A DNA stretch of 64,000 bases. It comes from a virus. The notes beneath the pieces were generated by a model, which ran no database searches, was not told the DNA's origin, and saw only the letters and a program-made list of their open reading frames with translations. This document shows positions 50,366-64,000 of the stretch, piece by piece. Location: positions 1 through 64,000 of IMG/VR virus record IMGVR_UViG_3300043811_000032, one strand, 5' to 3'. The translations under genes and the position numbers were made by a program. How positions within the stretch are numbered: position 1 is the stretch's first letter; each line of letters opens with the position of its first letter.

Positions 50366-50872
50366 CCTGTTTCGCCCGCTGCCCGATGGCGTGGTCGGCT
50401 TCACCACCACCCCTACGCCGTGCCCGTTCTTCTCCGCCTCGATCTTCGCCGCTCGGCCATTGCGGTACTCCTCGATCTGTGCCGCCCGCAGCTCCGCCGC
50501 CTTCGCCTTCGCCGCCTTGCGCAGCTCACGCCGGATCTCTTTCGCCTCCAGCTTGGCTCGTGCCTCGTCCTGCCGAGCCCGCCGCTTCTCCGCGATGCTG
50601 CGCAGGCGCTTGTCCTGCAGGTTCTGCGGCTCCTCCCAGTAGGCTGTCGCCGAGACCTGCGCGACGATCTCCCGCACCCGCAGGGCATCGTCGTTGAAGT
50701 ACTCCACCACCTTGTCGCAGTGGGCGATCAGCCGATGCCCCGGTTGGTAGCAGCCGAGCAGGTAAGCCAGCAGCTCCGCCTCGTCCTCGGTCACCTGCAG
50801 CGGGCGCCACTGTGGCTGGAGGACGTAGCCCGTGGTCTGCTTCTTCTGGTGCTTGCGCTTCTTGCGTGGCAT
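50171..50872 (-). CDS. basic hypothetical protein
   Basis: Coupled to methyltransferase stop; 3' end overlaps convergent sigma-like gene. Confidence 0.5.
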   Translation of the reverse strand: MPRKKRKHQKKQTTGYVLQPQWRPLQVTEDEAELLAYLLGCYQPGHRLIAHCDKVVEYFNDDALRVREIVAQVSATAYWEEPQNLQDKRLRSIAEKRRARQDEARAKLEAKEIRRELRKAAKAKAAELRAAQIEEYRNGRAAKIEAEKNGHGVGVVVKPTTPSGSGRNRSKAEQARVAQEDVVQQPVEGGAGHLEQPSSTAPPAVGTAGADLGGNEVQHLPVEERDGDGEGVG

Positions 50873-53112
50873 CACTTCCTCTTGGGTATGAGGTGGCGAT
50901 ACGCAGGATACTTGTACAGGGCTCCCTCTATCCGTGGCACAGCGTTACAGCGCAGATATCGCTCCGATAGGTCGATCCCTACCGAATGTCGGCCGTGGTC
51001 GATACTGACCTCGCACGTAGTACCGCTCCCACAGAAGGGGTCCATAACTACGCACGGCACCACGTCGTAGTCGTAGCCGCAATGGCAACCCGGCTTCCAG
51101 CCCACCGTCTTCACCTCGACGCCGGCCACCGAGTTGGCGCAGCTGTTGCCCGTGCCCTCCTCGCCGGTCCGCTTGACGTAGTCGTTGGGTCGCTCCCGCT
51201 TCAGCTTCTTCTCCTCTGTCACCCGCTGCCACGGTGTGCCGCAGAAGCCGCAGGCGCCCTTCGCACTAGTGCCGGCGAGGATGCACGGCTCGATCAGTTT
51301 AGGTGGAAACGTGGCGAAGTGGGCACCAGGGTATCCGCCTGCACTAATAAGCCATACTGACCTCTTGTTCCGATTTGGTACACGGCCTAATACCGCTGAG
51401 GCGTGGTCTTCGTTGTGCGACACCTTCCCGTCGAACTCAGTGGACGCTTGCTTCGGAGCAAGCGTTCGAGGAGGTAAGTTAGCTGTGTCTGCCGGCTCCT
51501 TGATCGCCTCCGCGTCATAGAAGTAGTCCATCCCCTTCGTCAGCAGGAACACGTACTCATGCGCCTTGGTGCAACGGTTCCGCACGCTCTCGGGCATCGG
51601 CGACGGCTTGCTGTTATGGGTCAACACACCCGAAGCCAGTGCGAGCAGGTGTGGCTCGTCCTCAACGCCCAGTTCGTACACGTATCGCGACTTCGCCTTG
51701 CGGACCTCCACAACCTCCAGCCGGTCCTTCTCGTTCCAGTGCCCGCTTCGTGCCTTCCTGATCTCCCCCTTGTATCCTTTCCGCGGTTTGCCTTTGTATA
51801 TCCCGACACACGGATTCAATGTCAAGCAGTAGCCAAGCCGAGCGCAGACTGTCCGCAGATCCCTTTCCAAGTTAGCGTTCCTTGTGAACCCGAGTCGCCA
51901 GCGAACACCACCGTCGCTACCGTCTCCACTCAGGTAGCCGTCCAGCATCGCCTCCAAAAAGTCGTTGCCATACCGCCACACTACCGGCGAGAAGCCCTTG
52001 TCGTAAGCATCGACACCACTTACCAACTCCCTGATGACAGCACAGATTAACTTGCCATATACTCGGATGGTCTGATTGTTGCCGTCTACAGTCAACGTGG
52101 CAGAACCGCCGTAGTCCTCAGCAATCTTCTTTACAAACTCCCACCTGCTTACTTCGTTGACATGGCCCGACAGGCTGAACTTGTCCTTCCTATCTCGCGT
52201 AACACCGCTGCCTTCGGCGATGTAGAGCCCTGCCAACCATGCCGCATCAAGCCCTACGTGTGACGGATCTCTTGGTTCCTTTGGTGCCGGCAGGCGACAG
52301 CCTTCCAGTACATCGCCAACCCTAATGTCTTTGGATTCAACAAGACCACGATCCTTTACTGGGAACCTATGCGTTGGCGTGCAAGAAATGCGCTCACCAC
52401 TTCTAAGCACTAGCGTCCTCTCATCTCCGCACCGTGGCGACTTGCTCATCCCCTTGAGCTGTGTCCACTTATTGCCGTTCCATAGTTTGACCGTGCTCGG
52501 TTTGAGCCGGTACAGATCCTTGAGTGTCATTGGCATGTCGCCCTTCTGCGTGCGAGCGTAGACCCACGTGCCACCACTCAGGCACCAAATTATGTCCTGT
52601 CGCAGCACCCATCCATCAGCTTGCAACGCGAGGGCGACGCGCCACGGGACGCCGACGAGGTTGCCTGATCTTAAGCCGCTGGTGCCTCCGTCTTTTGGCC
52701 ACGAGCCGGCCGATTCCGACTGCTTATCGTTCTCGAACTTCTTGCCAAAGTAGCGTTCGTTGAACCCGCTTTTCACGTCTCCACCACCTCCCGCTCCGCC
52801 GTAACTGTCACCTAAATTAAGCCATAGCACCCCGTCGTCCCGCAGCACCCGCCGCACCTCGCGAAACACCTCGACCATCGTGGCGACAAACTCCTGCGGT
52901 GTCTTCTCACTGCCGATTTCCTGATGCTTGCTATCGTGCCCGTCCTCTAAGTACGAGCGGAGGCCCCAATAAGGCGGACTAGTCACGACACAGTGAACGC
53001 TCTGGGTCTTGAGCCCGCGCAGGACGTCTGTGACGTTGCCGTGATATATCTTCACGGTCTCTTGGTCCGAGGTCATCCAGTAGGGCGGCACTGCCCTGAC
53101 GTGTATCGGCAT
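50872..53112 (-). CDS. beta-class N4/N6 DNA methyltransferase with intein
   Basis: VTSPPYW, LWLNLGD, DIIW|SKPSPMPES, HFATFP, DPFCGSGT. Confidence 0.92.
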   Translation of the reverse strand: MPIHVRAVPPYWMTSDQETVKIYHGNVTDVLRGLKTQSVHCVVTSPPYWGLRSYLEDGHDSKHQEIGSEKTPQEFVATMVEVFREVRRVLRDDGVLWLNLGDSYGGAGGGGDVKSGFNERYFGKKFENDKQSESAGSWPKDGGTSGLRSGNLVGVPWRVALALQADGWVLRQDIIWCLSGGTWVYARTQKGDMPMTLKDLYRLKPSTVKLWNGNKWTQLKGMSKSPRCGDERTLVLRSGERISCTPTHRFPVKDRGLVESKDIRVGDVLEGCRLPAPKEPRDPSHVGLDAAWLAGLYIAEGSGVTRDRKDKFSLSGHVNEVSRWEFVKKIAEDYGGSATLTVDGNNQTIRVYGKLICAVIRELVSGVDAYDKGFSPVVWRYGNDFLEAMLDGYLSGDGSDGGVRWRLGFTRNANLERDLRTVCARLGYCLTLNPCVGIYKGKPRKGYKGEIRKARSGHWNEKDRLEVVEVRKAKSRYVYELGVEDEPHLLALASGVLTHNSKPSPMPESVRNRCTKAHEYVFLLTKGMDYFYDAEAIKEPADTANLPPRTLAPKQASTEFDGKVSHNEDHASAVLGRVPNRNKRSVWLISAGGYPGAHFATFPPKLIEPCILAGTSAKGACGFCGTPWQRVTEEKKLKRERPNDYVKRTGEEGTGNSCANSVAGVEVKTVGWKPGCHCGYDYDVVPCVVMDPFCGSGTTCEVSIDHGRHSVGIDLSERYLRCNAVPRIEGALYKYPAYRHLIPKRK
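51613..52584 (-). mobile_element. intein with LAGLIDADG endonuclease (324 aa)
   Basis: Begins CLSGGT, block B CTPTHRF, LAGLYIAEG/LDGYLSGDG, ends THN before Ser. Confidence 0.92.
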
Positions 53113-56100
53113 TAGCCTTCTCCCATTACTTCGCGGTACAACCCCGCCATCCTTCGGGTAAGTCTCCACCGAGTCCTCAGATTGACTCCGTTCTTCAGCG
53201 GCTGATGCGGCTCGCAGGCACCGATCCGCTTGAGGAACTTGAGCAGCCCGCGTTCCTTGTCCTCTCCTTCGTGAGTTAGGTGGATGAGTGCAGCCACCTC
53301 CAGTCCCATGTCCCCCGCCGCTGCCAAATGCCGGATGATCTCGTACGTGCGGCCCCGAGCCGTATCCATCGCCACCCGTCGCACGCGGACCATCACCTCG
53401 CCGTCAATGGCGGTGCGGTTGAGTACGATGGCGAGGCAGTACGCCAGCTTGCCGATCTGGGACGTGAGCCGAGCACTCATCTCTCGGCTTGTCTCCTCGT
53501 CCTGCTTCTTGCTAGGGCGGGCACGCAGGTACGCCACGAACTTGGCGTAGGCCATGCAGAGCCTTGCCGCCTCGTCGGTCATCGTGATGTGGGGTAGTAA
53601 CCTACCCACGTTCTGCCGCAGCCACTCGACGTAGCCGCCGGTGATGCGCTTGGCGGCGATCATTTCCGGCGTGTCGGTGGTCTCGACCTTGCCATCCACC
53701 TCGTATAGGTTCATGCGCACCTGGTTGATCTTCCGCCAGCTGATCTCGTCCTCCAGCGAGTCGTCGATCACGTCCATGATGCGGCAGCACAGGAACCGCT
53801 CGCCCAGCTCACTGGTGTCCAGCGCACGCAGCGCCCCCGTACCGCAGAGTATCCAGGCGAAGCGGATACCCTCGTAGTCGCGGGACATCTTGTTGTTGAA
53901 AGCCGACCTACCCACCGTGTCGTACAGGTCGCGGGCCTGCCCCAGCACCTGATCGCGGTTAGGTAATGTCAACACCGTGTCGCCATCTTTGACAACGAAC
54001 GCCTTGTCGCGGAGCTTGTTCACCAATCCGAGGTCCTCCGTGCCCTCCTTGTCCGTCTGGTAGCCGCTGTAGAAGCCGCGGAACGTGCTCTGGGCCTTGA
54101 CGTACTCGCGAGCCACGCTAATCGCCTCGCACAGGATACTCTTGCCGGTAGACGGAGGCGACACCGCCATGATCCAGATCTGGTCCCCCACCACCTTCAC
54201 CGAGGCGACCGCCGCCATGATGATGCTGAAGCCGTAGTCCAGCCCGTCCGTCCACTTCATCGCCTTGCGCCACGCCTGCACGCAGTCCCGCCAGTTGTCG
54301 CAGGGCTGGGTCGTGAGTAGGTCGCGGTGTGGCCCGGCCTCGCTCTTGACCAGCCACTCGGCAGGCACCGGCTCGATCCGGTCGTTGAGCCTCTCCTGTA
54401 GTTCGATGCGCTCCTCCGCCGTCGAGCCCTGCGTGAGCCAGTCCCGCACGTCGTAGCCGCTCGGCAGCTCGGGGTCGTAGCCGTCCGCGCCCCAGCGAAT
54501 GTACCTGATCTCCTTGGGTGGTGCCTCCTGGCTCGCCAACAGCCGGGCGACGCGCTCCATGCCGTCTAGTCCGGCCTTGGTGACTCGTCCCTGATGCTCG
54601 CGAGGATGGTCGTTGTCGAACAGTAGTACCACCGTCTTGCCTGCCAGCAGCGAGGCCCAGCTCGGGTTGAACACGCTACAGCCCGGCACCGCCAGCACGT
54701 TCGCCCGCTGGCCGAGTCCCGCACTGCGAGCCGCCTGTAGCGTCTCCCACCACGCCATCCCGTCCCACGGCCCTTCACAATTTCCAGACACCACCGCCTT
54801 GCCGTTCCGGCGGACCACCACAAACCCAGTGGAGACAGTCACGCAGTAGACCTTACCTTTGTAGTGCTCTCTAGTCGGTTTATTGACAATCACTCTCCAA
54901 GGTTTCTTGATCATACAGAGGACGTACTGGTCGTTGCAGTTCTCCTCCTCGGACGGTATGCGGTTGGTACCGCTGGAATAGCCGGAGATCACAGCCATCC
55001 TTGAGATGACGTCTGCGTTGGCAGCGTTGGAGGTAAAATACCGGATACAGTTCTGGCCCTTGTCGCCGTCCCAATGAGGAATCTCCTCAATGATAGTCTG
55101 GCGGGTCTTGAGCGGCCAAGCTAGCTCCTTGCCTGTCCATATCTTCTTAGGGCAGCATTCCAATAAGAATTGAGCCTCCGGCTGTCGCTTGTCTATGAGG
55201 ATAGACTCAGACTCGTCCACGCTCCCCCAGTGGTGAGTCTTGAACTTTATGCCAAGTTCGTTGAGCAGGCTCTTTAGCCGCTCTTTCTTGCGATCCTTGT
55301 AGAAGCTGAACTCGATCTGGAATCCGCCTCGGATACAACCGTCGGCTACGAAAGCCGTCAACAACTTGGCTTGCGTTTCTGATGGACCTGCTTCTTCCCC
55401 CACCATAGTACCGCTGACTGGCAACTGGAAGCCGGCACCAACGTCTTGGGCCTTTCTGACTTGGCTCTTGGTAGCCTGCTGCCTTTTGCACAGCATCCTG
55501 TGGTCTGGCGTAACCAACAGGTCACACCAGCGGCTGGCGAAGTTGACCATCTCTCCGTGGAAATCTAGGACCTGCTTGGCTCTAGGCCGCTCGAACCTTA
55601 TGCTCTCGTTCTCTGGTTTGTAGGAGGCCACTCTGTCCTCCTCTCCCAATTCCTTGAACAACATCCATCCACGGTTAGTAAGGATCTCTGTGTCGTCCGA
55701 GTAGCAGACGTAACACATCTCCTTGCTCGCGTCGAACAGCGGCACGCCATGAAGCCCGTGTCCAACGTGCTCTCCGCCTGATAGAGTCGTAGGAAGCAAC
55801 TTCATTCTCTTACTTGTATAGTCTCGCACGTAGCGGTACAGCTGGACGAGGTTGCCCTCGCGGTTGTACCCCGGCAGCGCGTAGTCAAGAGTGAGCGGAT
55901 GCCGAATAGCTCCCCACTTGACGAGCGTGTCGACACTGAGCAGCTTGCGATCCTCGGCCAGCTCCTCCAGATCCGTCGGCGGTTGTGCCGCAGCCCACAG
56001 CTCGCGTAGGAACGTAACCTGGTTACCAGCACGTCCGCAGACCTTACAGTCCCAGAGCCCGCTCGCTGTTGCCACTCGCCATTTGAGCTTACCGCAGAAC

Positions 56101-56201
56101 GGACACTCTGCCTCCGACTGGTCCTGCCCCTCCCACGACAGGTCCATCCCGTGTTGGACGTATGCTTTCAATACCGCAGGAACGGTCTTGACGACAGGCA
56201 T
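53112..56201 (-). CDS. primase-helicase (Zn finger + TOPRIM + MCM-like AAA+) with intein
   Basis: CPFC..WDCKVC, CEGPWD, FDND, SPPSTGKS, KDGDT, RDLYD, ERF. Confidence 0.85.
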   Translation of the reverse strand: MPVVKTVPAVLKAYVQHGMDLSWEGQDQSEAECPFCGKLKWRVATASGLWDCKVCGRAGNQVTFLRELWAAAQPPTDLEELAEDRKLLSVDTLVKWGAIRHPLTLDYALPGYNREGNLVQLYRYVRDYTSKRMKLLPTTLSGGEHVGHGLHGVPLFDASKEMCYVCYSDDTEILTNRGWMLFKELGEEDRVASYKPENESIRFERPRAKQVLDFHGEMVNFASRWCDLLVTPDHRMLCKRQQATKSQVRKAQDVGAGFQLPVSGTMVGEEAGPSETQAKLLTAFVADGCIRGGFQIEFSFYKDRKKERLKSLLNELGIKFKTHHWGSVDESESILIDKRQPEAQFLLECCPKKIWTGKELAWPLKTRQTIIEEIPHWDGDKGQNCIRYFTSNAANADVISRMAVISGYSSGTNRIPSEEENCNDQYVLCMIKKPWRVIVNKPTREHYKGKVYCVTVSTGFVVVRRNGKAVVSGNCEGPWDGMAWWETLQAARSAGLGQRANVLAVPGCSVFNPSWASLLAGKTVVLLFDNDHPREHQGRVTKAGLDGMERVARLLASQEAPPKEIRYIRWGADGYDPELPSGYDVRDWLTQGSTAEERIELQERLNDRIEPVPAEWLVKSEAGPHRDLLTTQPCDNWRDCVQAWRKAMKWTDGLDYGFSIIMAAVASVKVVGDQIWIMAVSPPSTGKSILCEAISVAREYVKAQSTFRGFYSGYQTDKEGTEDLGLVNKLRDKAFVVKDGDTVLTLPNRDQVLGQARDLYDTVGRSAFNNKMSRDYEGIRFAWILCGTGALRALDTSELGERFLCCRIMDVIDDSLEDEISWRKINQVRMNLYEVDGKVETTDTPEMIAAKRITGGYVEWLRQNVGRLLPHITMTDEAARLCMAYAKFVAYLRARPSKKQDEETSREMSARLTSQIGKLAYCLAIVLNRTAIDGEVMVRVRRVAMDTARGRTYEIIRHLAAAGDMGLEVAALIHLTHEGEDKERGLLKFLKRIGACEPHQPLKNGVNLRTRWRLTRRMAGLYREVMGEG
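54780..55706 (-). mobile_element. intein with LAGLIDADG-like domain (309 aa) in TOPRIM motif
   Basis: Begins CYSDDTEILT..GW, VTPDHRM, VYCVTV, ends SGN before Cys; removal restores YV-CEGPWD. Confidence 0.92.
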
Positions 56202-56749
56202 CAATAGCTCCTTACTTCCCACACGATCATCCGACGTTGGAGTACGCCACAGTGCACGCGATAGTGCGAGAACTCGACCACGTGGTCCTCGTAGGTATCC
56301 AGCAGCTCCATCAGCCAGTCGTAGTCGCCGGGGTCGAGCGTTGTCCGCAGTAACGAGGTAGCAATTATACCGTAAACCTCGGCCGAGCGGGTGGCTAAAG
56401 CGGGCCGCATCGGCATCGGCAACGTGCTGTAGAGCAAATAGAGCCCGCGATTGCTCTGCATCACCTCCCCTTGCAGCACCGTCGTCGCCGTGGGCGCCAT
56501 CTCGCTGCAGTACCAGTCCTGCGGATCACTCATCCGTAGCCACAGTCCTCGCACCGCGGAGTAGCTCTGGTCATAGTACGTCGCCCCAGCCGCCACCCGA
56601 TTGCGCAGGTGGTAGCTGCCCATCTGGTTAGCCCCACTCTCAAACGCAACGCGGTCGTGCCACGTGTTGGTGCGGTTGCCGAACTCCAGCGCTTGGTATC
56701 GCTGGGTGAAGTCCGTTTTACTTAGCACCGGCGGTCTGCTTGGCCACAT
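56201..56749 (-). CDS. hypothetical protein
   Basis: Coupled ORF between dUMP hydroxymethylase-like gene and primase. Confidence 0.65.
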   Translation of the reverse strand: MWPSRPPVLSKTDFTQRYQALEFGNRTNTWHDRVAFESGANQMGSYHLRNRVAAGATYYDQSYSAVRGLWLRMSDPQDWYCSEMAPTATTVLQGEVMQSNRGLYLLYSTLPMPMRPALATRSAEVYGIIATSLLRTTLDPGDYDWLMELLDTYEDHVVEFSHYRVHCGVLQRRMIVWEVRSY

Positions 56750-57821
56750 AGTTCGCCTCCCGTCTACAGAGCCACTCTACCGCCGCCAGACGCCAGTCAT
56801 CTCCCCAACACATCTGCGCCGCCTTGAGTGCGTGGGTGTAGTTCCTGCTCTTGCGGTGATGGAACGCCATCATCAGCGGCTGGGCGACGTTCCGCAGGAA
56901 GCTGCAGTGGTACGAGCCTGCCAGTGCGTCCTTGCTGTGCCGCTCGACAAATTCACTACACTCCTTGTCGAAGATTTCCAGCTCGTTGGGCGAGAGCAGC
57001 GGCCACTTGAGGTCGCGGTCGGTGTAGAAGTCGTCGTGCTTGGTGTCGGCGAGCCAGACCTCCGGTTTCCAATTGCTTTCGTACACGTGGCCATTCGTCG
57101 TGATCTGGTGGTACTGCCCTACGGCGACGCCGAGGTGCGCGGCGACGTATTCAAGCAAGACGCTGAAGTGTACCGCATTCGCTCCCAGCAGCCCCCAAAT
57201 CAAATCGTTAGAGCGATTGAACACCGTAAGGTTCAGCTGCCGCGGCTCGCCGTGCGTCCAACCCCCCGACATCTGGAACGTCGCGGCGAGGTTGCAGCAG
57301 ACATCGCGGCTACGGTCGATAGCCAATAGGTCCTGATCCACCGTCCACATCTGGAGCACTGCCCGCCGGCTCTCCGGCTTCTCCTTCAAGTGTCGTATGA
57401 TCTGGGCTATCTGGTCCCAAGGCTCTAGGGCGTACCTATCGCCGGCGCTGTCGATCTGGTCATCGGTCAAGGCGTAGCTCTTGCTGTGCCGCCATCGCTT
57501 TCCGTAGCCGCCATTGAACGTCTCGCCGTCGTCCGTGTACTCCTTGAACTGCTTAGCGTAGTAGACGAGCGGGCTTACATCGTTCCGCCCCGCCAACATG
57601 TATAACGCTTCGTAGAGCATCATGAATGGATTCGCGTCCCGAGCCCCATTCATCAAGACTCTTTCACATGGCCGCTCGTACGTCACCGTCAACGGCTCCT
57701 CGATGACCAACACCGACCCGTTGCGGCTAGGGCTGGGTGTAGTTGGAATCGATCCGTCGTGTATGCCCTGCACTATCGTCCTGAAGGCGGTTCCGACGTT
57801 GCGTGTCTTGATCTGTGGCAC
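56718..57821 (-). CDS. thymidylate synthase-family enzyme, dUMP hydroxymethylase-like
   Basis: SRNG, RDANPF..E.L.ML.G, GGYGKRWR, SRRAVLQMW, DVCCN, NRSND..WG..GAN. Confidence 0.85.
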   Translation of the reverse strand: MPQIKTRNVGTAFRTIVQGIHDGSIPTTPSPSRNGSVLVIEEPLTVTYERPCERVLMNGARDANPFMMLYEALYMLAGRNDVSPLVYYAKQFKEYTDDGETFNGGYGKRWRHSKSYALTDDQIDSAGDRYALEPWDQIAQIIRHLKEKPESRRAVLQMWTVDQDLLAIDRSRDVCCNLAATFQMSGGWTHGEPRQLNLTVFNRSNDLIWGLLGANAVHFSVLLEYVAAHLGVAVGQYHQITTNGHVYESNWKPEVWLADTKHDDFYTDRDLKWPLLSPNELEIFDKECSEFVERHSKDALAGSYHCSFLRNVAQPLMMAFHHRKSRNYTHALKAAQMCWGDDWRLAAVEWLCRREANYVAKQTAGAK

Positions 57822-58392
57822 GGTGCTCTCCTTTGTAAAGTTGCTCGAACGCGGCCAAGAACTCTACCTCGCTCTTCTGCCACGTCCACGGTATCCAATA
57901 CTTGACGCTGGCGATCTCCTCTGCCGTCAGCGGCGGGTAGTTCCGCTCCTGGTCTGGCTGCATCAGGGCGACGGTGCAGCCCGGTAGTAACTTGCTCATC
58001 TCGTAGCGGACCAGCACCCGGTCGGCGCGTTCCACTACCTCCGCCGTCTCCTCCGCGCAACCATACTTGCGGTAGATCGTCCTCTGCAGCCGGTCCTCCG
58101 CCGCTCGGTAGCCAGCCATCTCGGGCGTCTTCTTCAGCCACTTCGTCACATCCCCGAGATAGGTCTCACTGGCGTCGTGGAGCAGAGCTTGGAGCGCGTG
58201 GGGCGTGTCCCAGCAGATCCGAGCCGCGTAGACGCTGTGCTGGGCGACGCTGAGCGGCACCTTGGTTGCGCCTGCGAAGCGGTTGCATAGGGCAAGATGG
58301 TGGGCGATGTCCTCGATGACGATGTCCGCCGGCTGGACGTCGAGGGGGTTGATCTTGCGGCCGGTGAACGAGTACATAAAGGGCTGAGTCAT
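57727..58392 (-). CDS. HD-domain (YfbR-like) nucleotide hydrolase
   Basis: IEDIAHHL..NRF.G, SVAQHS, ALLHDASE.YLGD. Confidence 0.85.
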   Translation of the reverse strand: MTQPFMYSFTGRKINPLDVQPADIVIEDIAHHLALCNRFAGATKVPLSVAQHSVYAARICWDTPHALQALLHDASETYLGDVTKWLKKTPEMAGYRAAEDRLQRTIYRKYGCAEETAEVVERADRVLVRYEMSKLLPGCTVALMQPDQERNYPPLTAEEIASVKYWIPWTWQKSEVEFLAAFEQLYKGEHRATDQDTQRRNRLQDDSAGHTRRIDSNYTQP

Positions 58393-58451
58393 CCTGAACT
58401 CCTTATGGATCAACGGGATCGGAAAACTTGGTTCAATCTAGATATTTCGCC

Positions 58452-58479
58452 TTGCTTCAGGCTACAGTCGGCGTATACT
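58452..58479 (+). promoter_or_regulatory. sigma70-like promoter
   Basis: TTGCTT-16 nt-TATACT upstream of GGAG RBS and plus-strand gene. Confidence 0.55.
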
Positions 58480-58533
58480 TTACCAAGGCGACAGGGGGCA
58501 CACCGCCACCCGGCCACCATCTGGAGAACCGCA

Positions 58534-58944
58534 ATGACCGCTACCATGACCGAAGCCCCCGTCAGCACCAATGGCCACACCAGCAGCACCAAGCCGGTTG
58601 CCAAGAAGACTCGCAAGGCCAAGCCTGCCGCCACCAAGACCGAGGCCCAGTACGGCATCGACCGCAGCCACGACCTGCCGTGGCACGACAAGAAGGTTGC
58701 CATCTTCAAGGCACTGAAGGCGCTGGGTGCCACCAAGAGCGGTGACGCCGTGTCGGCCGTGCAGGTTGCTGCCAAGGCCAAGGTGACCGCCCGCGACGTC
58801 CGCCACTACTGCTACCACGCCAAGGCGGCTGGGCTGGTTGACTTGGCCACCATCGAGGACGTTCGCGGCCACGCCTTCTACCTGACCGCCAAGGGCCGCA
58901 ACATCGACCCCGTGCAGGCACAGAAGGCTGAACAGGCCGAGTAA
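58534..58944 (+). CDS. Lys/Ala-rich winged-helix DNA-binding protein
   Basis: GGAG RBS; SAVQVAAKAKV..GLV..FYLTAKG. Confidence 0.75.
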   Translation: MTATMTEAPVSTNGHTSSTKPVAKKTRKAKPAATKTEAQYGIDRSHDLPWHDKKVAIFKALKALGATKSGDAVSAVQVAAKAKVTARDVRHYCYHAKAAGLVDLATIEDVRGHAFYLTAKGRNIDPVQAQKAEQAE

Positions 58945-58971
58945 CGCTGCCACCATTACCAACCCCCTTAC

Positions 58972-59005
58972 AGGCCCGTACAATGGTGTGCGGGCCTTTA
59001 TTGTT
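58972..59005 (+). terminator. hairpin, possible terminator
   Basis: AGGCCCGTAC..GTGCGGGCCT followed by TTATTGTT. Confidence 0.45.
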
Positions 59006-59015
59006 GGAGCCACTT

Positions 59016-59249
59016 ATGGAACTCAACCGCGCTCAGCTCTGCCTGCTCCGCAGTATCAAGTCCACCGGCTTCCCTGCCGAGTTACTGCAGATCTTCCTCG
59101 GTCGCTGCGGTGCCACCGTTGCCGAGTGGCAAGCCCTGCTGGATGCCGACTTGGTTACTGCCGGCAAACGTGCCGAACGTGGTCGCTACGTGATTACCAA
59201 GGCTGGCACCACCGCTTACAACCACCGCCCGAAGCACATCTACTTCTAG
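59016..59249 (+). CDS. small winged-helix-like protein
   Basis: GGAG RBS; L.DADLV..YVITKAG. Confidence 0.55.
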   Translation: MELNRAQLCLLRSIKSTGFPAELLQIFLGRCGATVAEWQALLDADLVTAGKRAERGRYVITKAGTTAYNHRPKHIYF

Positions 59250-60211
59250 CCCATCTCCCACGGCTGCAGTACCGGCAAAGTATAACAACCTTTGCCGAGT
59301 GCTGTGGCTATCGCCCGCTCATCCTCTGCTGTTGGCAGCGGCAGGCTCTTCTTACCCTTCTTGTCCGGTAGCAGCCCCGGTCGATAGCTCAGTGCATCGC
59401 AGCCGGCACACGGACCGAAGTCACGCAGCCCGTGGTACAGCTTGCGCCGTGCCGCTCGCATTGCCGGCCCCTGCCAGATCTGCTCTAGTGTCTGTTGCAC
59501 CACGTTGCCACACTGGTACTCACCGCGCCAGTCGTTGCAGCATACTGCCACGCTACCATCCCAGCGTATGCTCAGCTCCCTGAACGGTTTGGCACACCGC
59601 TTGCCCATCGCGTTGTCGTTCTTGGGGCTGCCGCAGCCCGCGTGGTTGTTCAGACTGGCGTGGGTGCCCTTGGTCGCCTCGGCGATGTCCTGCACGATGA
59701 CCAGGTCGTGCTCGTCTGGCTTGCGGCGCCGGTGCGGGTTGCCCGACTTGTCTGCTGGGTACATCGTCGGCTCGTGCTTGCCGCTGTACCGCTGCAGGAT
59801 CTTGGGCACGATTTGCACCCCTTCGTAGGCATCCAAGGCCAGCACGTTCAGGCTCTGCAGGGCAGTGTCGATTGTCTCCGTCGGTGTCCTCAGGAACCCC
59901 GCCCCGTTGCTGGTCATCATCAGGTGAGCACGCTTGGGCAGTCGTCGCCGGAACGTGCCAAGTATCTCCAGCATCTGTGGGTTAGCACTAGGCTCACCGT
60001 GCATAGCAAACTCGATGCGTGGCAGCCAATTGTCCTGCTTGAGCAAGTACACAATCCGCTCCGCTAGCAACACAGTCATGAACTTGTAGTCGTTGTCCTT
60101 ACCGCGGATGCCGTTTAACCCACAGAACTGACAGCGTAGCTGACACCCTTCAGTGAGTTCTACTTGTAGGGCGAACGGCGGTTCCTGTCGCTCAGGATTG
60201 TGAAGAGGCAT
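59246..60211 (-). CDS. radical SAM/SPASM-twitch domain protein
   Basis: CQLRCQFC, HGEP, TSNG, CAKPF..IRWDG.V..CCND..GN..CAGC. Confidence 0.9.
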   Translation of the reverse strand: MPLHNPERQEPPFALQVELTEGCQLRCQFCGLNGIRGKDNDYKFMTVLLAERIVYLLKQDNWLPRIEFAMHGEPSANPQMLEILGTFRRRLPKRAHLMMTSNGAGFLRTPTETIDTALQSLNVLALDAYEGVQIVPKILQRYSGKHEPTMYPADKSGNPHRRRKPDEHDLVIVQDIAEATKGTHASLNNHAGCGSPKNDNAMGKRCAKPFRELSIRWDGSVAVCCNDWRGEYQCGNVVQQTLEQIWQGPAMRAARRKLYHGLRDFGPCAGCDALSYRPGLLPDKKGKKSLPLPTAEDERAIATALGKGCYTLPVLQPWEMG

Positions 60212-60983
60212 ATGCTTTGCTCCAGTAGACAACCACGTCGGTACGCTCCTCCATCCCCTGCCAGTTCTTCGTCTGCTTCTTGACCACCTTGACGAACCCG
60301 GGATGTAGCTCGGCCAGCCGCTCGGCTGCTTGGCTCTGCATCGCTGTTGTCCGGTACTGACTGCATCCGCCTGGCAGATTGCTGCCGCCTTGGTTCCAGC
60401 ACCATCGGTAGATCATCGCGTTGGGCAAGCCCTTGCGCAGCATCTGCAGGGTCAGATCGAAGTCCTCCATAACCGGCAACCGCCCTGCCTCCACACCGGC
60501 TTGCCGCACCTGCTCCAAGTCATACATGTAGGTATTGAACATGCGACGACACTCGGCCACGTCTTCGGTCTCTCGGTTGTTCCCCTGCCGTGCCGACAGT
60601 CCCACATGAGCGTACTTGTCTAGCAACAATCGCCAGTACTCAAACAGCTCGGTGATCATCTTGCTCTGCGGTTCCAGACTTACCAGCTTGGGAGACGCCA
60701 TATCCGGTCGGTACGCGAACGTCATGTCGTCGTCGATCATCGCTAGGTAGCGAGTCTGACACGTCTCCATCAAGTACTTCCTAGTGCCGCTGATGCCCTT
60801 GACGGTGCTTGGGACATACCACAACGGTGCCAGCGCTCCCCATGACCTGTACGACGGCGTCTCGTTGTTGGGAATAGCCAGCTTGGTGACCCTGAGCAGC
60901 TCATTGGGCAACTGCTCCAAGGTTGTCTGCTTGGACGATCTGCCCGAGCTGGGGATCACAATGGTAACGTCTTCAAGCCCCAT
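60192..60983 (-). CDS. TET-associated (GREB1/TAGT-like) glycosyltransferase
   Basis: IVIPSSGR, GI..TR, MIDDD, EDFDLTLQ.L..G, GGCS.YRT, HP. Confidence 0.75.
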   Translation of the reverse strand: MGLEDVTIVIPSSGRSSKQTTLEQLPNELLRVTKLAIPNNETPSYRSWGALAPLWYVPSTVKGISGTRKYLMETCQTRYLAMIDDDMTFAYRPDMASPKLVSLEPQSKMITELFEYWRLLLDKYAHVGLSARQGNNRETEDVAECRRMFNTYMYDLEQVRQAGVEAGRLPVMEDFDLTLQMLRKGLPNAMIYRWCWNQGGSNLPGGCSQYRTTAMQSQAAERLAELHPGFVKVVKKQTKNWQGMEERTDVVVYWSKAYASSQS

Positions 60984-61836
60984 TGTACTTCCTCTTCAGG
61001 TGCCCATCCCTACTTAGTGCCCGCTCCATCTTATCGTACTCACATAATGAATGTTCAACCTCGCGGGCCTCGAACGGCGGCATCTTGGGCAGTTGCTTGG
61101 TCAACACGCGCAGCAACCGCTGGCTCTCCTCTTGCCACAGATCACGGGACACCGGTTCATTCAGCCCACGCCCTAGCAATCGGTTCAGCCCACGCTTGGC
61201 ACCTGGCCCTGGATTGGACCACGTCAGCTTGTCTGTGGCGTGCTCCAGCAGTGTCGTGTACCGCAGGTCGCACACCACTTCGTACGCCATGAAGCCGCTG
61301 CCGCCCAGCCCTAGATACTGTTTGAGTCGGCTGTGTGCCTGCTGCATCGTCCGCCACTTGGCAGCATCCGCCAGCAGGCTTGGCAGGTCATCCCACACTG
61401 GCTGGATGTAGTCGTCACACACACGGTCGATCTTGGGCTTGGTGCTGCCGCTGTTGCTGATGTTGAACGCCCCCGTGAACACACGGTCCAACTTGCGCAG
61501 GTGTTGCTTGGCGTAGCCGAGCCGCCAATTGGTCAGCAGATCGTGCTCCAGCAGCAGCTCGCCGGTCGGTATCCAGTTAAACCACCGGAAGCACACGGTA
61601 GCGAACAGCACCGCAGGGTCGTCCCGCATCGGCTCACGCACATGCTCTCTGAACCATGCCGTCACCTTGTCGTTCTCGCGGTATGGATTGGTGAAGAATG
61701 TCAAACGCAACACGGCATCATCTGTCCACGGCTTGGGCTTGCCGGCTCGCCGCTTAAGATAGATCTGGTGGCGTTCACGCACCCAGTAGATGAACCGGTC
61801 GAGCGGGCTCAGCTTGATTACTTCTGACGTTATCAT
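60973..61836 (-). CDS. aGPT-Pplase1 / amino acid:DNA transferase, paralog 1
   Basis: ERHQIY..R..G.P.PWTDD, FTNPYRE.D, FRWFN, FMAYEVVCD, GPG..RGL, EHSLCEYDK. Confidence 0.85.
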   Translation of the reverse strand: MITSEVIKLSPLDRFIYWVRERHQIYLKRRAGKPKPWTDDAVLRLTFFTNPYRENDKVTAWFREHVREPMRDDPAVLFATVCFRWFNWIPTGELLLEHDLLTNWRLGYAKQHLRKLDRVFTGAFNISNSGSTKPKIDRVCDDYIQPVWDDLPSLLADAAKWRTMQQAHSRLKQYLGLGGSGFMAYEVVCDLRYTTLLEHATDKLTWSNPGPGAKRGLNRLLGRGLNEPVSRDLWQEESQRLLRVLTKQLPKMPPFEAREVEHSLCEYDKMERALSRDGHLKRKYNGA

Positions 61837-62705
61837 CTTTTGCCGCCATACTTCTTAGTAGTGCCTTGCTCCAAGCTGGCTCGTTCGTATTTGTCGAACT
61901 CACAGAGGCTGTGTTCTATGTCTCGCATCTCAAACCGCATCCGTAGCCGTTTGGTAGCTACACTGAGCAGACCCTCTATCTTGTCCAATGCATTTGGAAC
62001 GTCGTCTTGCTTTGCGTACATCCAACCGACCTTTCCAGTGCGATGGTCTACGCCTGCCACTACCGGCATACCAAGCACTCTGCGCAGCCCGCGAAGACAT
62101 CCTGGTCCTACGTTGCACCATGTCATGGTGTCGTGTGCCTTATCTAGCAACGACGTGTGTCTGAGGTCACTCACAACTTCATAAGCCATGAAGTCCCCCA
62201 AGTATTTCTGCTGTCGTAGCTCCTTCCAAGCTCCTTGCAGGCTGTTAGATCTCAGAGTGACTGTCTTGAGCCATTCAATAGCTGTACATACGCCCTCTAT
62301 CTTAGACATCCCTGTCGGTGCTGCTATGACGAAGGCGCCAGTAAATACCGGACCATTTACAGTAGACAGCACGTGGATGGCCTTATTCTTGTCCCACGCA
62401 TGTAGCAGCCCATTATCAAGTAGTATCTGTCCAGTGTCGATACGGTTGAACCAACGGAAAACTATAGTTCCTAAGAGCACCCGCACATCACTCCTCATCG
62501 GCTCCCTGAACTGCGTTCTGAACCATGCTGTGGTTTTATCGTTCTCCCTATACGGGTTGGTAAACCAGAACTTTTGCATGACCGTATCGTCAGTCCAAGG
62601 TGGTAGCTTGCCTACCTTGCGCCTGCGGTATATCTGGTCTCTCTCTCTAATCCAGTAGAGAAACCTATCAACAGGGGATAGATTTCGCACGTCCTCGATC
62701 AGCAC
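61833..62705 (-). CDS. aGPT-Pplase1 / amino acid:DNA transferase, paralog 2
   Basis: Same motifs: PWTDD, FTNPYREND, FRWFN, FMAYEVVSD, GPG, EHSLCEFDK. Confidence 0.85.
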   Translation of the reverse strand: MLIEDVRNLSPVDRFLYWIRERDQIYRRRKVGKLPPWTDDTVMQKFWFTNPYRENDKTTAWFRTQFREPMRSDVRVLLGTIVFRWFNRIDTGQILLDNGLLHAWDKNKAIHVLSTVNGPVFTGAFVIAAPTGMSKIEGVCTAIEWLKTVTLRSNSLQGAWKELRQQKYLGDFMAYEVVSDLRHTSLLDKAHDTMTWCNVGPGCLRGLRRVLGMPVVAGVDHRTGKVGWMYAKQDDVPNALDKIEGLLSVATKRLRMRFEMRDIEHSLCEFDKYERASLEQGTTKKYGGKR

Positions 62706-64000
62706 GCCTCCGCCTCCCCCCAGTTGCTCGGATGATAGTTAATCGCCACGCGGAGGGGCACGCCAATATCCACCCCCGACTCCTCCATCAGCTTTGCCAG
62801 CTTGCGCACCTTGGGCAGGTTCCGCTTGCCGCCGGCTGGGAAGTCGAAGTCGATCTCGTCGTGTACTTGCAGCACCATCCGCCCGTCGAAGCCGTCCTCG
62901 CGGCGCCACTTGTCCAGTTGCTCTCGGCAGCGGATCATAGCCTTGAGTGTGCACCACATCGCCCCGCCCTGCGTCCGGTAGTTCAGCGGGATCGTCGGAC
63001 TGATCTTACCCCACTCGGTCCGAGTGCACATCAGCGGATAACCGTGGTGCGGGTCCACCGTCTTGTCGGGCGGTGTCTCAATGTAGCCGTGCTTGTTGGC
63101 GAAGTCTATGCAGTGCTGGTTCCATCGCGTCAGTTCTTTGAGCTTGTCGCTTACCGCCTTGCGGGCACCCTGCTTGTGGGCAGCTCGGTCCGCCGTCTCG
63201 TCGCCGGCCCCGTATTCATAACTGAACCCGAAGTTCTTGCACCACTGGTACCAGGTCGTGCTATACTTCTTCTTGAACGCCCCCTTGGTATCGGCTAGCG
63301 GCCAGAACAGGTCAGGGTAGATGATACTGGCATTCATCAAGTGGTAGCTGCCATAATACGGCGGCTCGTCTGGCTTCTCGAACAGGTCTATCATTAGCCG
63401 CTCGCCAGATTCCCAGGCCGGGATTCTGAGTTCTATGTTTTCATAGTCCAGTGCCCACCATTCGCGCCCTTCGGCTGGACCGAACGCATACCGCAGGCTC
63501 TGCGTCTCCAAGCCAGTTCCACAACACGCTGAGCAGCCTTCGCCCTCGCACTCGCTGCATTCAGCCTCCTGCTTCGACACGTTCTGGCTGTTAGGGTTGG
63601 ATGACGACCAGCGGAGCGTATCCGTGCCAGTCGGTGAGAGCGATGGGTGGATATGATACCAGTCCTCCTTGATTGGTATCCAGAACCGGCGATACGCCTC
63701 CATGTACGCGACCGACGTATCCCGCTTGCGCTTGCGTTGTATCGCCTTGACGAAGTCTAGTTGCTTACCTTCCAAGGTTAGTTCGTACTTATCCATCGCC
63801 ACCTTGTTCAGCGACGGGTTGCCAGTGTCCGTCCACTCCACCACCGGTAGCTTGAGGTATTGCTGCTTGGGACTACCCTCCTGCGGCTTACCGAAGCAGA
63901 AGTTCAGCAGCGAGTTGTTGTTCCCGCTCTTGGGCAGTTTCAGGTCGTAGTCCAGCCCTTTGGCTATCGCCACGCACTTGGCCCCTGCCTCGGCACTCTC
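62699..64000 (-). CDS. family A DNA polymerase (5' part outside window)
   Basis: T.TLRWSSSNPNSQN, motif A DYENIELRI, motif B K..GF..YGAG, motif C QVHDEI. Confidence 0.92.
   Translation of the reverse strand, partial: ESAEAGAKCVAIAKGLDYDLKLPKSGNNNSLLNFCFGKPQEGSPKQQYLKLPVVEWTDTGNPSLNKVAMDKYELTLEGKQLDFVKAIQRKRKRDTSVAYMEAYRRFWIPIKEDWYHIHPSLSPTGTDTLRWSSSNPNSQNVSKQEAECSECEGEGCSACCGTGLETQSLRYAFGPAEGREWWALDYENIELRIPAWESGERLMIDLFEKPDEPPYYGSYHLMNASIIYPDLFWPLADTKGAFKKKYSTTWYQWCKNFGFSYEYGAGDETADRAAHKQGARKAVSDKLKELTRWNQHCIDFANKHGYIETPPDKTVDPHHGYPLMCTRTEWGKISPTIPLNYRTQGGAMWCTLKAMIRCREQLDKWRREDGFDGRMVLQVHDEIDFDFPAGGKRNLPKVRKLAKLMEESGVDIGVPLRVAINYHPSNWGEAEAC

Follow-up and report, generated by a model that had tools for sequence, protein, structure and literature searches.

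A phage gene island without a recognisable DNA kinase may direct a sugar-based hypermodification of thymine

The DNA analyzed here, hereafter called the window, comprises the first 64 kb (64,000 nucleotides) of the 98,691-bp (98.7-kb) IMG/VR virus record IMGVR_UViG_3300043811_000032, which carries a 127-bp direct terminal repeat (DTR) and is rated complete by CheckV (100% estimate). The genome has a G+C content of ~60%, and nearly all of its genes lie on the minus strand. At 56718-62705, next to a DNA polymerase gene, the window contains the probable DNA-hypermodification island, based on 5-hydroxymethyluracil (hmU), of a complete tailed-phage genome. Along the direction of transcription, the polymerase and the co-oriented island genes follow each other in this order:

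62699-64000 in the window, continuing to genome position 64831, minus strand: family A DNA polymerase (polA); PF00476, 93.5 bits; 710 aa for the full open reading frame (ORF)

61833-62705, minus strand: P1B, PF18723 protein; 290 aa; PF18723, 154.7 bits

60973-61836, minus strand: P1A, PF18723 protein; 287 aa; PF18723, 154.4 bits

60192-60983, minus strand: GT-A type glycosyltransferase (GT) of the TAGT family; 263 aa; PF20691, 49.1 bits

59246-60232, minus strand: BtrN-like Twitch enzyme of the radical S-adenosylmethionine (SAM) type; 328 aa as the longest ORF, 321 aa if started at 60211

57727-58413, minus strand: HD-domain nucleotidase; phrog_318, 8.7e-47; Protein Data Bank (PDB) entry 2gz4, 1.5e-13

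56718-57821, minus strand: predicted pyrimidine hydroxymethylase of the thymidylate synthase (TS) fold, called the TS homolog below; 367 aa; PF00303, 73.6 bits; phrog_5131, 1.7e-87

The island genes are tightly packed, with overlaps of 4 to ~40 bases between neighbors, and the GT gene overlaps the genes on both of its sides. For the radical SAM gene, the start at 60211 is more likely, and the public gene call likewise gives 321 aa. The polymerase gene, of which the 3′ part lies inside the window, flanks the island in the same way in the close relatives L005-L008 and L039. A first-pass annotation of the window, made from the sequence alone, had already reported polymerase, GT, radical SAM, HD, and TS-like genes in one run. 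All of them are present, packed on the minus strand; what it had missed are two short genes on the plus strand that separate the radical SAM gene from the HD gene. Its interpretation of the run as an hmU-based thymidine hypermodification island is likewise supported by the gene families.

We compared the island with 144 IMG/VR loci, 64 of which were collected via the radical SAM protein and 80 via the PF18723 profile, with six contigs occurring in both sets. The PF18723 profile detects at least 554 IMG/VR loci, from which the 80 were sampled. All loci were scanned with hidden Markov models (HMMs) built in this analysis and are referred to by L-numbers, L002 being the window genome past position 64,000. 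A PF18723 gene together with a TS homolog forms the recurring core of the 144 loci. The commonest gene orders are PF18723-TS, without any other family searched (30 loci), PF18723-GT-radical SAM-TS (23 loci), and PF18723-c9-TS (11 loci), in which c9 stands for a second GT family described below. The order found in phage M6, PF18723-kinase-transferase-TS, is restricted to a handful of loci. Because the PF18723-GT-radical SAM-TS order recurs in 23 other viral loci, the grouping has not arisen by chance, and this run of genes is a genuine, conserved arrangement.

The nature of the modified base can be predicted from the TS homolog. Against the ThyA equivalog models it reaches 16-71 bits, compared with cut-offs of 108-576 bits, and its closest phage relative is PaMx11 gp51 (203 bits). 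The best match in the PDB is the CMP hydroxymethylase MilA, in which an Asp aligns with an Asn of the query. In the TS fold, Asn at this position goes with uracil and Asp with cytosine, as illustrated by N177 of ThyA and D179 of the T4 dCMP hydroxymethylase. The Asn, located in the motif RSND..GAN, does not vary among 47 homologs, two of which are PaMx11 gp51 and PhiJL001 gp24, and the column of the catalytic Cys is kept. The first-pass annotation had considered that the protein might turn out to be a canonical ThyA that makes dTMP. Judging from the uracil-type Asn, the relation to PaMx11 gp51, and the low equivalog scores, it groups with gp51 and not with canonical ThyA. Based on this relation and on the gene context, its product is predicted to be 5-hydroxymethyl-dUMP (5-hmdUMP) rather than dTMP, and the modified base a thymine derivative, that is, of uracil and not of cytosine type.

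The phrog_318 family matched by the HD protein is described as dNMP phosphatase. Of the first 64 related loci, 32 carry an HD gene of another subfamily (YfbR-like) at this position, as do PaMx11 and PhiJL001. By analogy to its family, the nucleotidase presumably removes dTMP and dUMP so that 5-hydroxymethyl-deoxyuridine (hmdU) replaces dT.

Both P1A and P1B had been taken for amino acid:DNA transferases. They match PF18723 over model positions 4-278 of 281 (cut-off 25 bits) and no other Pfam family; PF18724 (ADDT) is matched by neither of them at E≤0.01 and by nothing in a six-frame search of the whole genome at E≤1. In a control scan, PaMx11 gp46, a proven glycine:DNA transferase, matched PF18724 alone (97 bits), the kinase gp49 matched P-loop families, and gp50 matched PF18723. 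Searches with phmmer related the paralogs to gp50 (201 bits for P1B and 163 bits) and not to gp46. Based on this assignment of gp46 and gp50, PF18723, which carries the Pfam name HMUDK_hel, corresponds at the sequence level to clade 1 of the former aGPT-Pplase family; phage annotators still use the latter name for PF18723 proteins. In M6, lysates containing gp54 (kinase) and gp51 (clade 2) are enough for glycine transfer, and the clade-1 protein gp55 is dispensable (PMC8989533). We found no published function for clade 1 in the literature. With the clade-1 assignment and the dispensability of gp55, the idea that the transferase pair serves two amino acids or sequence contexts loses its support as well. 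As far as sequence comparison goes, neither "amino acid:DNA transferase" nor "5-hmdU kinase" is justified as a family assignment for the two paralogs.

A more distant relation to the transferases is visible at the level of structure and motifs. The AlphaFold (AF2) model of P1A, built on 34 homologs, has a predicted local distance difference test (pLDDT) score of 93.9. An exhaustive structural comparison placed the queuosine-nucleotide glycosylase QNG1/DUF2419 on top (Z 10.7), tied with PaMx11 gp46/PUGT (8z2m; Z 10.3, root-mean-square deviation (rmsd) 4.3, 219 residues), and DNA glycosylases of the helix-hairpin-helix (HhH) type followed just under gp46 with Z 8-10. This relation was seen with the exhaustive aligner alone; Foldseek with the P1A model returned nothing at E≤0.001, and sequence searches of the PDB with P1A and P1B gave nothing real. 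Among 34 PF18723 sequences, R22, R53, D56, R84, D190, D202, a G-P-G-x-x-R-G motif, C265, E266, and K269 are invariant, and P1B, an HhH-glycosylase-like protein, contains the motif E-H-S-L-C-E. In hhalign, the PF18723 profile and a PF18724 profile made from five sequences are colinear over 143 columns with a statistically weak E of 0.028, pairing the GxG hairpin, an invariant Asp, and E-[H/T]-x-L-C, the Cys of which is invariant in both families; against the gp46 sequence alone, the PF18723 profile aligned over 17 residues. Common fold and Cys motif, as judged from model and profile, argue that PF18723 is homologous to the amino acid:DNA transferase family. In the transferases, a Glu-Thr dyad binds an essential metal and is required for activity (PMC13458397). 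All five aligned PF18724 sequences contain this dyad, which precedes the Cys by four residues. It is not kept in PF18723, where the corresponding positions 261/262 are E/Q (21/12) and H/N (20/13), and E-H in the proteins of the window. The presence of E/Q and H/N in place of the metal pair is suggestive.

We consider it improbable that P1A and P1B are nevertheless amino acid:DNA transferases, perhaps acting in two contexts, with the sugar and radical SAM steps on top and with an unrecognized or host kinase. The fold and the invariant Cys motif in common with the proven transferase gp46 agree with this explanation, as do the first prediction of the family as pyrophosphorylase or transferase (as summarized in PMC8989533) and the duplication, which is unique in the 144 loci and would fit the gain of a second specificity. 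Against it stand the missing PF18724 match and the dispensability of M6 gp55 for glycine transfer (PMC8989533), the lack in the complete genome of a recognizable 5-hmU DNA kinase, which would have to provide the 5-PmdU that such transferases use, the unconserved metal dyad, and the 30 loci in which a PF18723 gene lies beside the TS gene without the other families searched. In these minimal modules, including L077-L079, L081, L084-L086 and others, the two genes often abut, which suggests that the role of PF18723 is tied to hmU itself.

The Pfam name of PF18723, "5-hmdU DNA kinase, helical domain", and the fact that the PaMx11 kinase gene gp49 ends at the start of gp50 could also mean that the pair are, or are part of, 5-hmdU DNA kinases and that hmU is phosphorylated as in M6. 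We regard this as hardly credible. No Walker A or other nucleotide-binding motif was found in P1A or P1B, their fold resembles HhH glycosylases and the transferase, and the genome offers no P-loop kinase partner. In addition, of ~975 PF18723 homologs, all 120 listed, which are of near-full length, carry PF18723 alone, and both longer ones found are without a kinase domain.

P1A and P1B are 45% identical. In a quick tree, P1A is orthologous to the one PF18723 protein of its closest relatives (68% identity to the L005 protein), and a second PF18723 gene is present in no other of the 144 loci. Each of the tandem copies may have its own specificity. A complex prediction for P1A and P1B scored 0.00, which makes no call either way. 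We also considered an assignment of P1B to a kinase-linked and of P1A to a GT-linked subclade, which was rejected since PF18723 proteins from kinase and GT contexts intermix in the quick tree.

The first-pass annotation had recognized no 5-hmU kinase in the cluster and suggested that it lies elsewhere or that the chemistry differs. The first observation holds, and it holds for the genome beyond the cluster as well: in six frames at E≤1, no match to the 5-hmU DNA kinase family PF18748 was obtained, and phmmer with PaMx11 gp46, gp47, gp48, and gp49 found nothing. Walker A motifs in the genome belong to an AAA_24 recombination ATPase, an unscanned 794-aa protein, a few short ORFs, and a primase-helicase; only the first of these points to a kinase-sized protein. 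A kinase elsewhere in the genome is thus not recognizable. As a positive control, the same kind of search recovered both PF18723 genes, and the kinase HMM built in this analysis finds kinases in 11 other loci. TET/JBP (PF12851), dCMP deaminase, and dUTPase were not found in the whole genome either, the island shows neither an FAD lyase nor an acetyltransferase, and no PLP (pyridoxal phosphate) decarboxylase was seen in the cluster, for which a genome-wide search was not made. Because the genome is complete, these absences carry weight. Neither kinase nor transferase is recognizable in it, and the chemistry must therefore differ from that of M6, ViI, and PhiW-14, in line with the second of the two suggestions.

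The GT scores well above the PF20691 cut-off of 27.5 bits and also matches phrog_842 (4e-48). Its GT-A type DxD motif, D84-D85-D86, is invariant in 29 homologs. The proteins related to it include PhiJL001 gp22 and LuckyBarnes gp39/gp40. In the island, its partner is the TS-fold hydroxymethylase and not a TET/JBP dioxygenase. In many islands the TAGT-like enzyme is replaced by c9, a family of 340 aa found at L005:4837-5841, L034:6967-7995, and in 17 further loci. It has no Pfam or PHROG match; a protein atlas based on language-model features relates it to T4 DNA alpha-glucosyltransferase (PF11440, score 0.98), and it resembles GT4 folds with a template-modelling (TM) score of 0.8. By these features, c9 constitutes a second family of DNA glycosyltransferases, one of the GT-B type. 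Neither GT family gave a match when its profile was searched against the PDB.

The closest named relatives of the GT are the T-even beta-glucosyl-HMC alpha-glucosyltransferases (HMC, hydroxymethylcytosine), and the genome contains a large separate glycan pathway, both of which would be compatible with a GT and radical SAM enzyme acting on hydroxymethylcytosine or, rather than on DNA, on a virion or cell-surface glycan. We judge either possibility to be very improbable: the uracil-type Asn is present in all 47 hydroxymethylase homologs, TET/JBP is missing from the genome, where no cytosine-specific hydroxymethylase was seen either, and dozens of phages with unrelated backbones have a GT and a radical SAM gene in the interval from polA to the TS homolog.

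The radical SAM enzyme matches PF04055 and PF13186. Its CX3CX2C motif (C30/C34/C37) is invariant, and further invariant Cys residues in the C-terminal part (C213, C231, C232, C275, C278) are enough for one auxiliary cluster. NCBIfam contains no specific subfamily for it. Based on an AF2 model with a pLDDT of 94.1, Foldseek relates the protein to BtrN (4m7t; E 9e-15, target TM-score 0.81), and VIA aligns 236 of the 246 BtrN residues with Z 24.7 and an rmsd of 2.7 Å. The next entry in the VIA comparison is ChlB (Z 15.1), and SuiB, anSME, DesII, and SpeY follow with Z 13-15. Judging from this model, the protein is a BtrN-like Twitch enzyme. BtrN, a radical SAM dehydrogenase of the Twitch class, forms a ketone from a ring carbinol of its aminocyclitol substrate, and anSME oxidizes Ser or Cys. 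By analogy, a BtrN-like enzyme would presumably oxidize an alcohol, for which a sugar hydroxyl is the obvious substrate.

Its relatives are numerous: 1509 were found at E≤1e-20, all generically named, and the 120 listed include contigs of up to ~99 kb. A tblastn search against 50,697 phage records (cut-off 1e-3) gave a single weak metagenomic match of 21.7% identity. The first-pass annotation had referred to the radical SAM enzymes that tailor the product in M6. Since the searched collection holds M6-like genomes, for example SN1 and AN14, the protein has no detectable sequence relation to the M6-group isomerase (gp53-type), a comparison made via the M6-like genomes rather than gp53 itself; the resemblance is to BtrN instead. 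In L028, L029, L042-L045, and L059, relatives of the radical SAM enzyme adjoin ORFs of 860-1120 aa containing a UDG-like segment (UDG, uracil-DNA glycosylase), some of them together with a GT and a second radical SAM protein of 475 aa, and no PF18723 or TS gene is found within 8 kb. These loci may derive from phages with an SP-15-like polymerase.

The coupling of the radical SAM gene to GT genes is close. A TAGT-like or AGT-like GT lies within 8 kb in 69 of the 86 radical SAM loci. Of 73 GT-radical SAM pairs, 55 are adjacent and 46 overlap, and the GT gene precedes the radical SAM gene in 61. The kinase is found in 11 loci, and kinase and GT occur together in none of the 144.

We also weighed a radical SAM enzyme acting on the base, either by converting the hydroxymethyl group to 5-formyluracil or by forming a C-C bond at the 5-methylene towards an SP-15-like linker, with subsequent glycosylation. 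Its next structural relatives are anSME and other dehydrogenases, and some loci contain the radical SAM gene without a GT or with a kinase. Moreover, the very large UDG-containing ORFs adjoining some of its relatives are maybe polymerases as in SP-15-like phages (PMC13697223, PMC12686479). Despite these observations, action on the base is unlikely: the linkage to the GT gene is tight and directional, the match to BtrN exceeds that to anSME by ~10 Z units, and oxidation of the hydroxyl would destroy the site of glycosylation.

Taken together, these data point, with somewhat better than even confidence, to a kinase-free pathway leading to a base-J-like glycosyl-hmU with a sugar tailored by the radical SAM enzyme. 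In a first step, the TS-fold enzyme would turn dUMP into 5-hydroxymethyl-dUMP, as expected from its family and residues, while the HD nucleotidase would clear the competing thymidine and uridine nucleotides and the phage polymerase would build hmU-containing DNA. After replication, the TAGT-family GT-A enzyme would move a sugar from a nucleotide sugar to the 5-hydroxymethyl oxygen, giving a base-J-like product; this step is suggested by the family and its conserved context. Third, based on structure and gene coupling, the BtrN-like enzyme would abstract a hydrogen from a carbinol carbon of the sugar, and the resulting ketone could be final or could allow additional modification. The leading guess for a fourth step is that P1A and P1B act on hmU or a derivative of it in DNA via attack of the Cys at C6 without phosphate activation, the duplication giving two specificities. 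The constant company of the hydroxymethylase, the transferase-like Cys motif, and the unconserved metal site would fit such a reaction without a phosphate leaving group. Neither DNA phosphorylation nor PF18724 transfer would be part of the pathway. The first-pass annotation, which had proposed a composite base with an amine and/or a sugar on the strength of two transferases, a GT, and a radical SAM enzyme, is therefore partly supported: it was right in outline, and the evidence favors the sugar half, whereas the tandem pair had been misjudged.

Several points weigh against this pathway. The phage is without a gene for dUMP supply, and the presumed specificity of the HD nucleotidase is taken from its family match. 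No GT is found within 8 kb in 17 of the 86 radical SAM loci, and in L051 (9002-9577) and L055 (9287-9952) a BtrN-like radical SAM enzyme is paired with a PaMx11-gp49-like kinase and no GT; a sugar may thus not be the sole substrate of the radical SAM enzyme. The substrate of BtrN is a free small molecule, and by analogy the phage enzyme could tailor the nucleotide sugar before its transfer. For PF18723, the proposed role is a guess, and the statistics of the profile alignment are weak; going by the top structural match, QNG1, these proteins could act on free nucleotides. Finally, the characterized enzymes from TAGT contexts act on 5-hydroxymethylcytosine (5hmC) and not on hmU (PMC8256090).

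The predicted product belongs to the same class as base J, in which a sugar is attached to the hydroxymethyl group of hmU in DNA. In kinetoplastids, base J is made by the thymidine hydroxylases JBP1/2 and the glucosyltransferase JGT. The island would differ in that hmU is made before replication by a TS-fold enzyme and without TET/JBP, that the GT belongs to the TAGT family, and that a radical SAM enzyme and PF18723 proteins are added. To our knowledge, a DNA kinase and a PF18724 transferase stand at the start of all thymidine hypermodification pathways elucidated to date. The clusters of the Pseudomonas phages M6/YuA and PaMx11, the Salmonella phage ViI, PhiW-14, SP10, and the Acinetobacter phage SH-Ab 15599 (PMC5889632, PMC8989533, PMC11472151, PMC13458397) have the TS-fold hydroxymethylase, the HD nucleotidase, PF18723, the neighboring family A polymerase, and a tailoring of hmU after replication in common with the window genome. 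In contrast to them, the window genome lacks a P-loop 5-hmU DNA kinase and PF18724, contains a GT and a BtrN-like radical SAM enzyme instead, and has a duplicated PF18723 gene.

Phage pathways in which TET/5mYOX enzymes provide 5hmC for TAGT or other GTs, and T-even gp42 with the alpha- and beta-glucosyltransferases (PMC8256090, bioRxiv 10.1101/2023.12.21.572611, PMC13229309), use the same GT family (PF20691, phrog_842) and follow the same logic of a hydroxymethylpyrimidine that then receives a sugar. Here, the base is predicted to be a uracil, no methyltransferase-dioxygenase route is involved, and the radical SAM partner is absent from those pathways as described. Sugar-bearing thymidines do exist in the phages SP-15, YerA41, and Carin-5, as glycosylated alkyl-linker thymidines (PMC13697223, PMC12686479). 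Sugar-bearing T and nucleotide-sugar genes are common to these phages and the window genome; their polymerase type differs, the radical SAM enzyme is unmatched in the phage collection beyond the one metagenomic record, and a linker chemistry is not implied. Among the radical SAM enzymes, BtrN (2-deoxy-scyllo-inosamine dehydrogenase of butirosin biosynthesis), SpeY, and DesII provide the comparison, BtrN matching over the whole chain and with the CX3CX2C motif and the auxiliary-cluster-type C-terminus in common. The window enzyme is 19% identical to BtrN, has ~80 extra residues, occurs in a phage DNA-modification context, and presumably acts on a DNA- or nucleotide-linked sugar rather than on a free aminocyclitol.

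A simpler version of the island is found in two cultured phages, PhiJL001 of Alphaproteobacteria (gp19, gp22, gp24, gp25) and LuckyBarnes of Brevibacterium (gp38-gp41), which makes the core claim testable. Both encode PF18723, one or two TAGT-like GTs, and a TS homolog, and PhiJL001 also an HD gene. As in the window genome, no kinase match was found in either; unlike it, they show no radical SAM match and have a single PF18723 copy. We found no report on the DNA chemistry of PhiJL001 or LuckyBarnes, and no published account of the gene combination or chemistry described here, part of which may have been predicted by Iyer et al. 2013. Three features set the window genome apart: its two tandem PF18723 genes, the quantitative assignment to BtrN, and the large nucleotide-sugar pathway.

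Together with well over a hundred similar islands from viral metagenomes, this one points to a second, sugar-based route of T hypermodification. If true, this would mean a new class of natural DNA bases, a radical SAM enzyme working on a DNA-linked sugar in a type of step so far known from aminoglycoside biosynthesis, and a first clue to the function of PF18723, the roughly one thousand members of which are without an assigned role even in M6 and PaMx11. Such DNA would likely be resistant to restriction enzymes and may bias sequencing libraries, and the enzymes could be used to tag hmU.

Outside the island, a region of ~21 kb (25690-46743) contains a nucleotide-sugar/glycan pathway. Two epimerase/dehydratases of the short-chain dehydrogenase/reductase (SDR) type, a DegT/DnrJ-type PLP enzyme, a B12-radical SAM protein, a further radical SAM protein, and three GT4-like transferases were confirmed there. 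By analogy to what has been suggested for Carin-5, this pathway could supply the donor sugar for DNA modification. A more far-reaching version of the proposal, which we think fairly unlikely, combines it with the fourth step above: the new DNA base would be hmU carrying a keto or further derivatized rare sugar with a donor from the phage's own 21-kb pathway, and the PF18723 proteins would represent the first group transferases, or else editors, that modify hydroxymethyl-pyrimidine DNA independently of a kinase, via a Cys-C6 adduct. Such a role would explain why PF18723 accompanies the hydroxymethylase in most of the hmU-hypermodifying phages sampled.

Three further genes lie within or next to the island:

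58983-59249, plus strand: small ORF, tentative, from the ORF list; probable ATG at 59015

58534-58944, plus strand, opposite to the island direction: small gene of ~136 aa, supported by G+C content at third codon positions (GC3) and homologs

56201-56749, minus strand: conserved 182-aa protein, downstream of the TS gene; same position in L005, L006, L008, and L039

The first of them has no family match and no homolog cluster among the sampled loci; our impression of a winged-helix-like protein comes from the sequence. For 58534-58944, the in-frame GC3 is 0.86, compared with 0.61 and 0.47 in the other frames, a GGAG lies upstream of the ATG, and homologs occur at the same position and in the same orientation in L005 (59% identity) and L007 (52%). 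Its product has no Pfam or NCBIfam match, and we guess it to be a DNA-binding regulator; the neighboring plus-strand gene may encode a regulator, too. The 182-aa protein matched nothing in Pfam, PHROG, or NCBIfam, and a protein-atlas search was uninformative.

Downstream of the 182-aa protein, 53112-56222 (minus strand) encodes a 1036-aa primase-helicase with an intein, which starts with C-Y-S-D-D-T-E-I-L-T, includes a LAGLIDADG-like stretch, and terminates in S-G-N, with C as the next residue. The matches of residues 166-483 to the PHROG families of ribonucleotide reductase, TS, and PhoH probably reflect shared intein/endonuclease sequence. It is followed at 50872-53169 (minus strand) by an N6/N4 DNA methyltransferase matching PF01555 in three stretches, with an intein-like insertion at residues 251-519 that reaches 26.8 bits for Intein_splicing, under the cut-off of this model. 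Beyond the window, a separate UDG-superfamily gene (PF03167, 71.5 bits) lies at genome positions 69298-69897 (minus strand; L002:5298-5897). Its presence fits the idea that dU incorporated by mistake is removed by phages whose T is modified (PMC13697223). Directly upstream of polA, at genome positions 64828-65424 (minus strand; L002:828-1424), is an HNH homing-type endonuclease gene, relatives of which occupy other positions around polA and TS in the related contigs L006 and L007.

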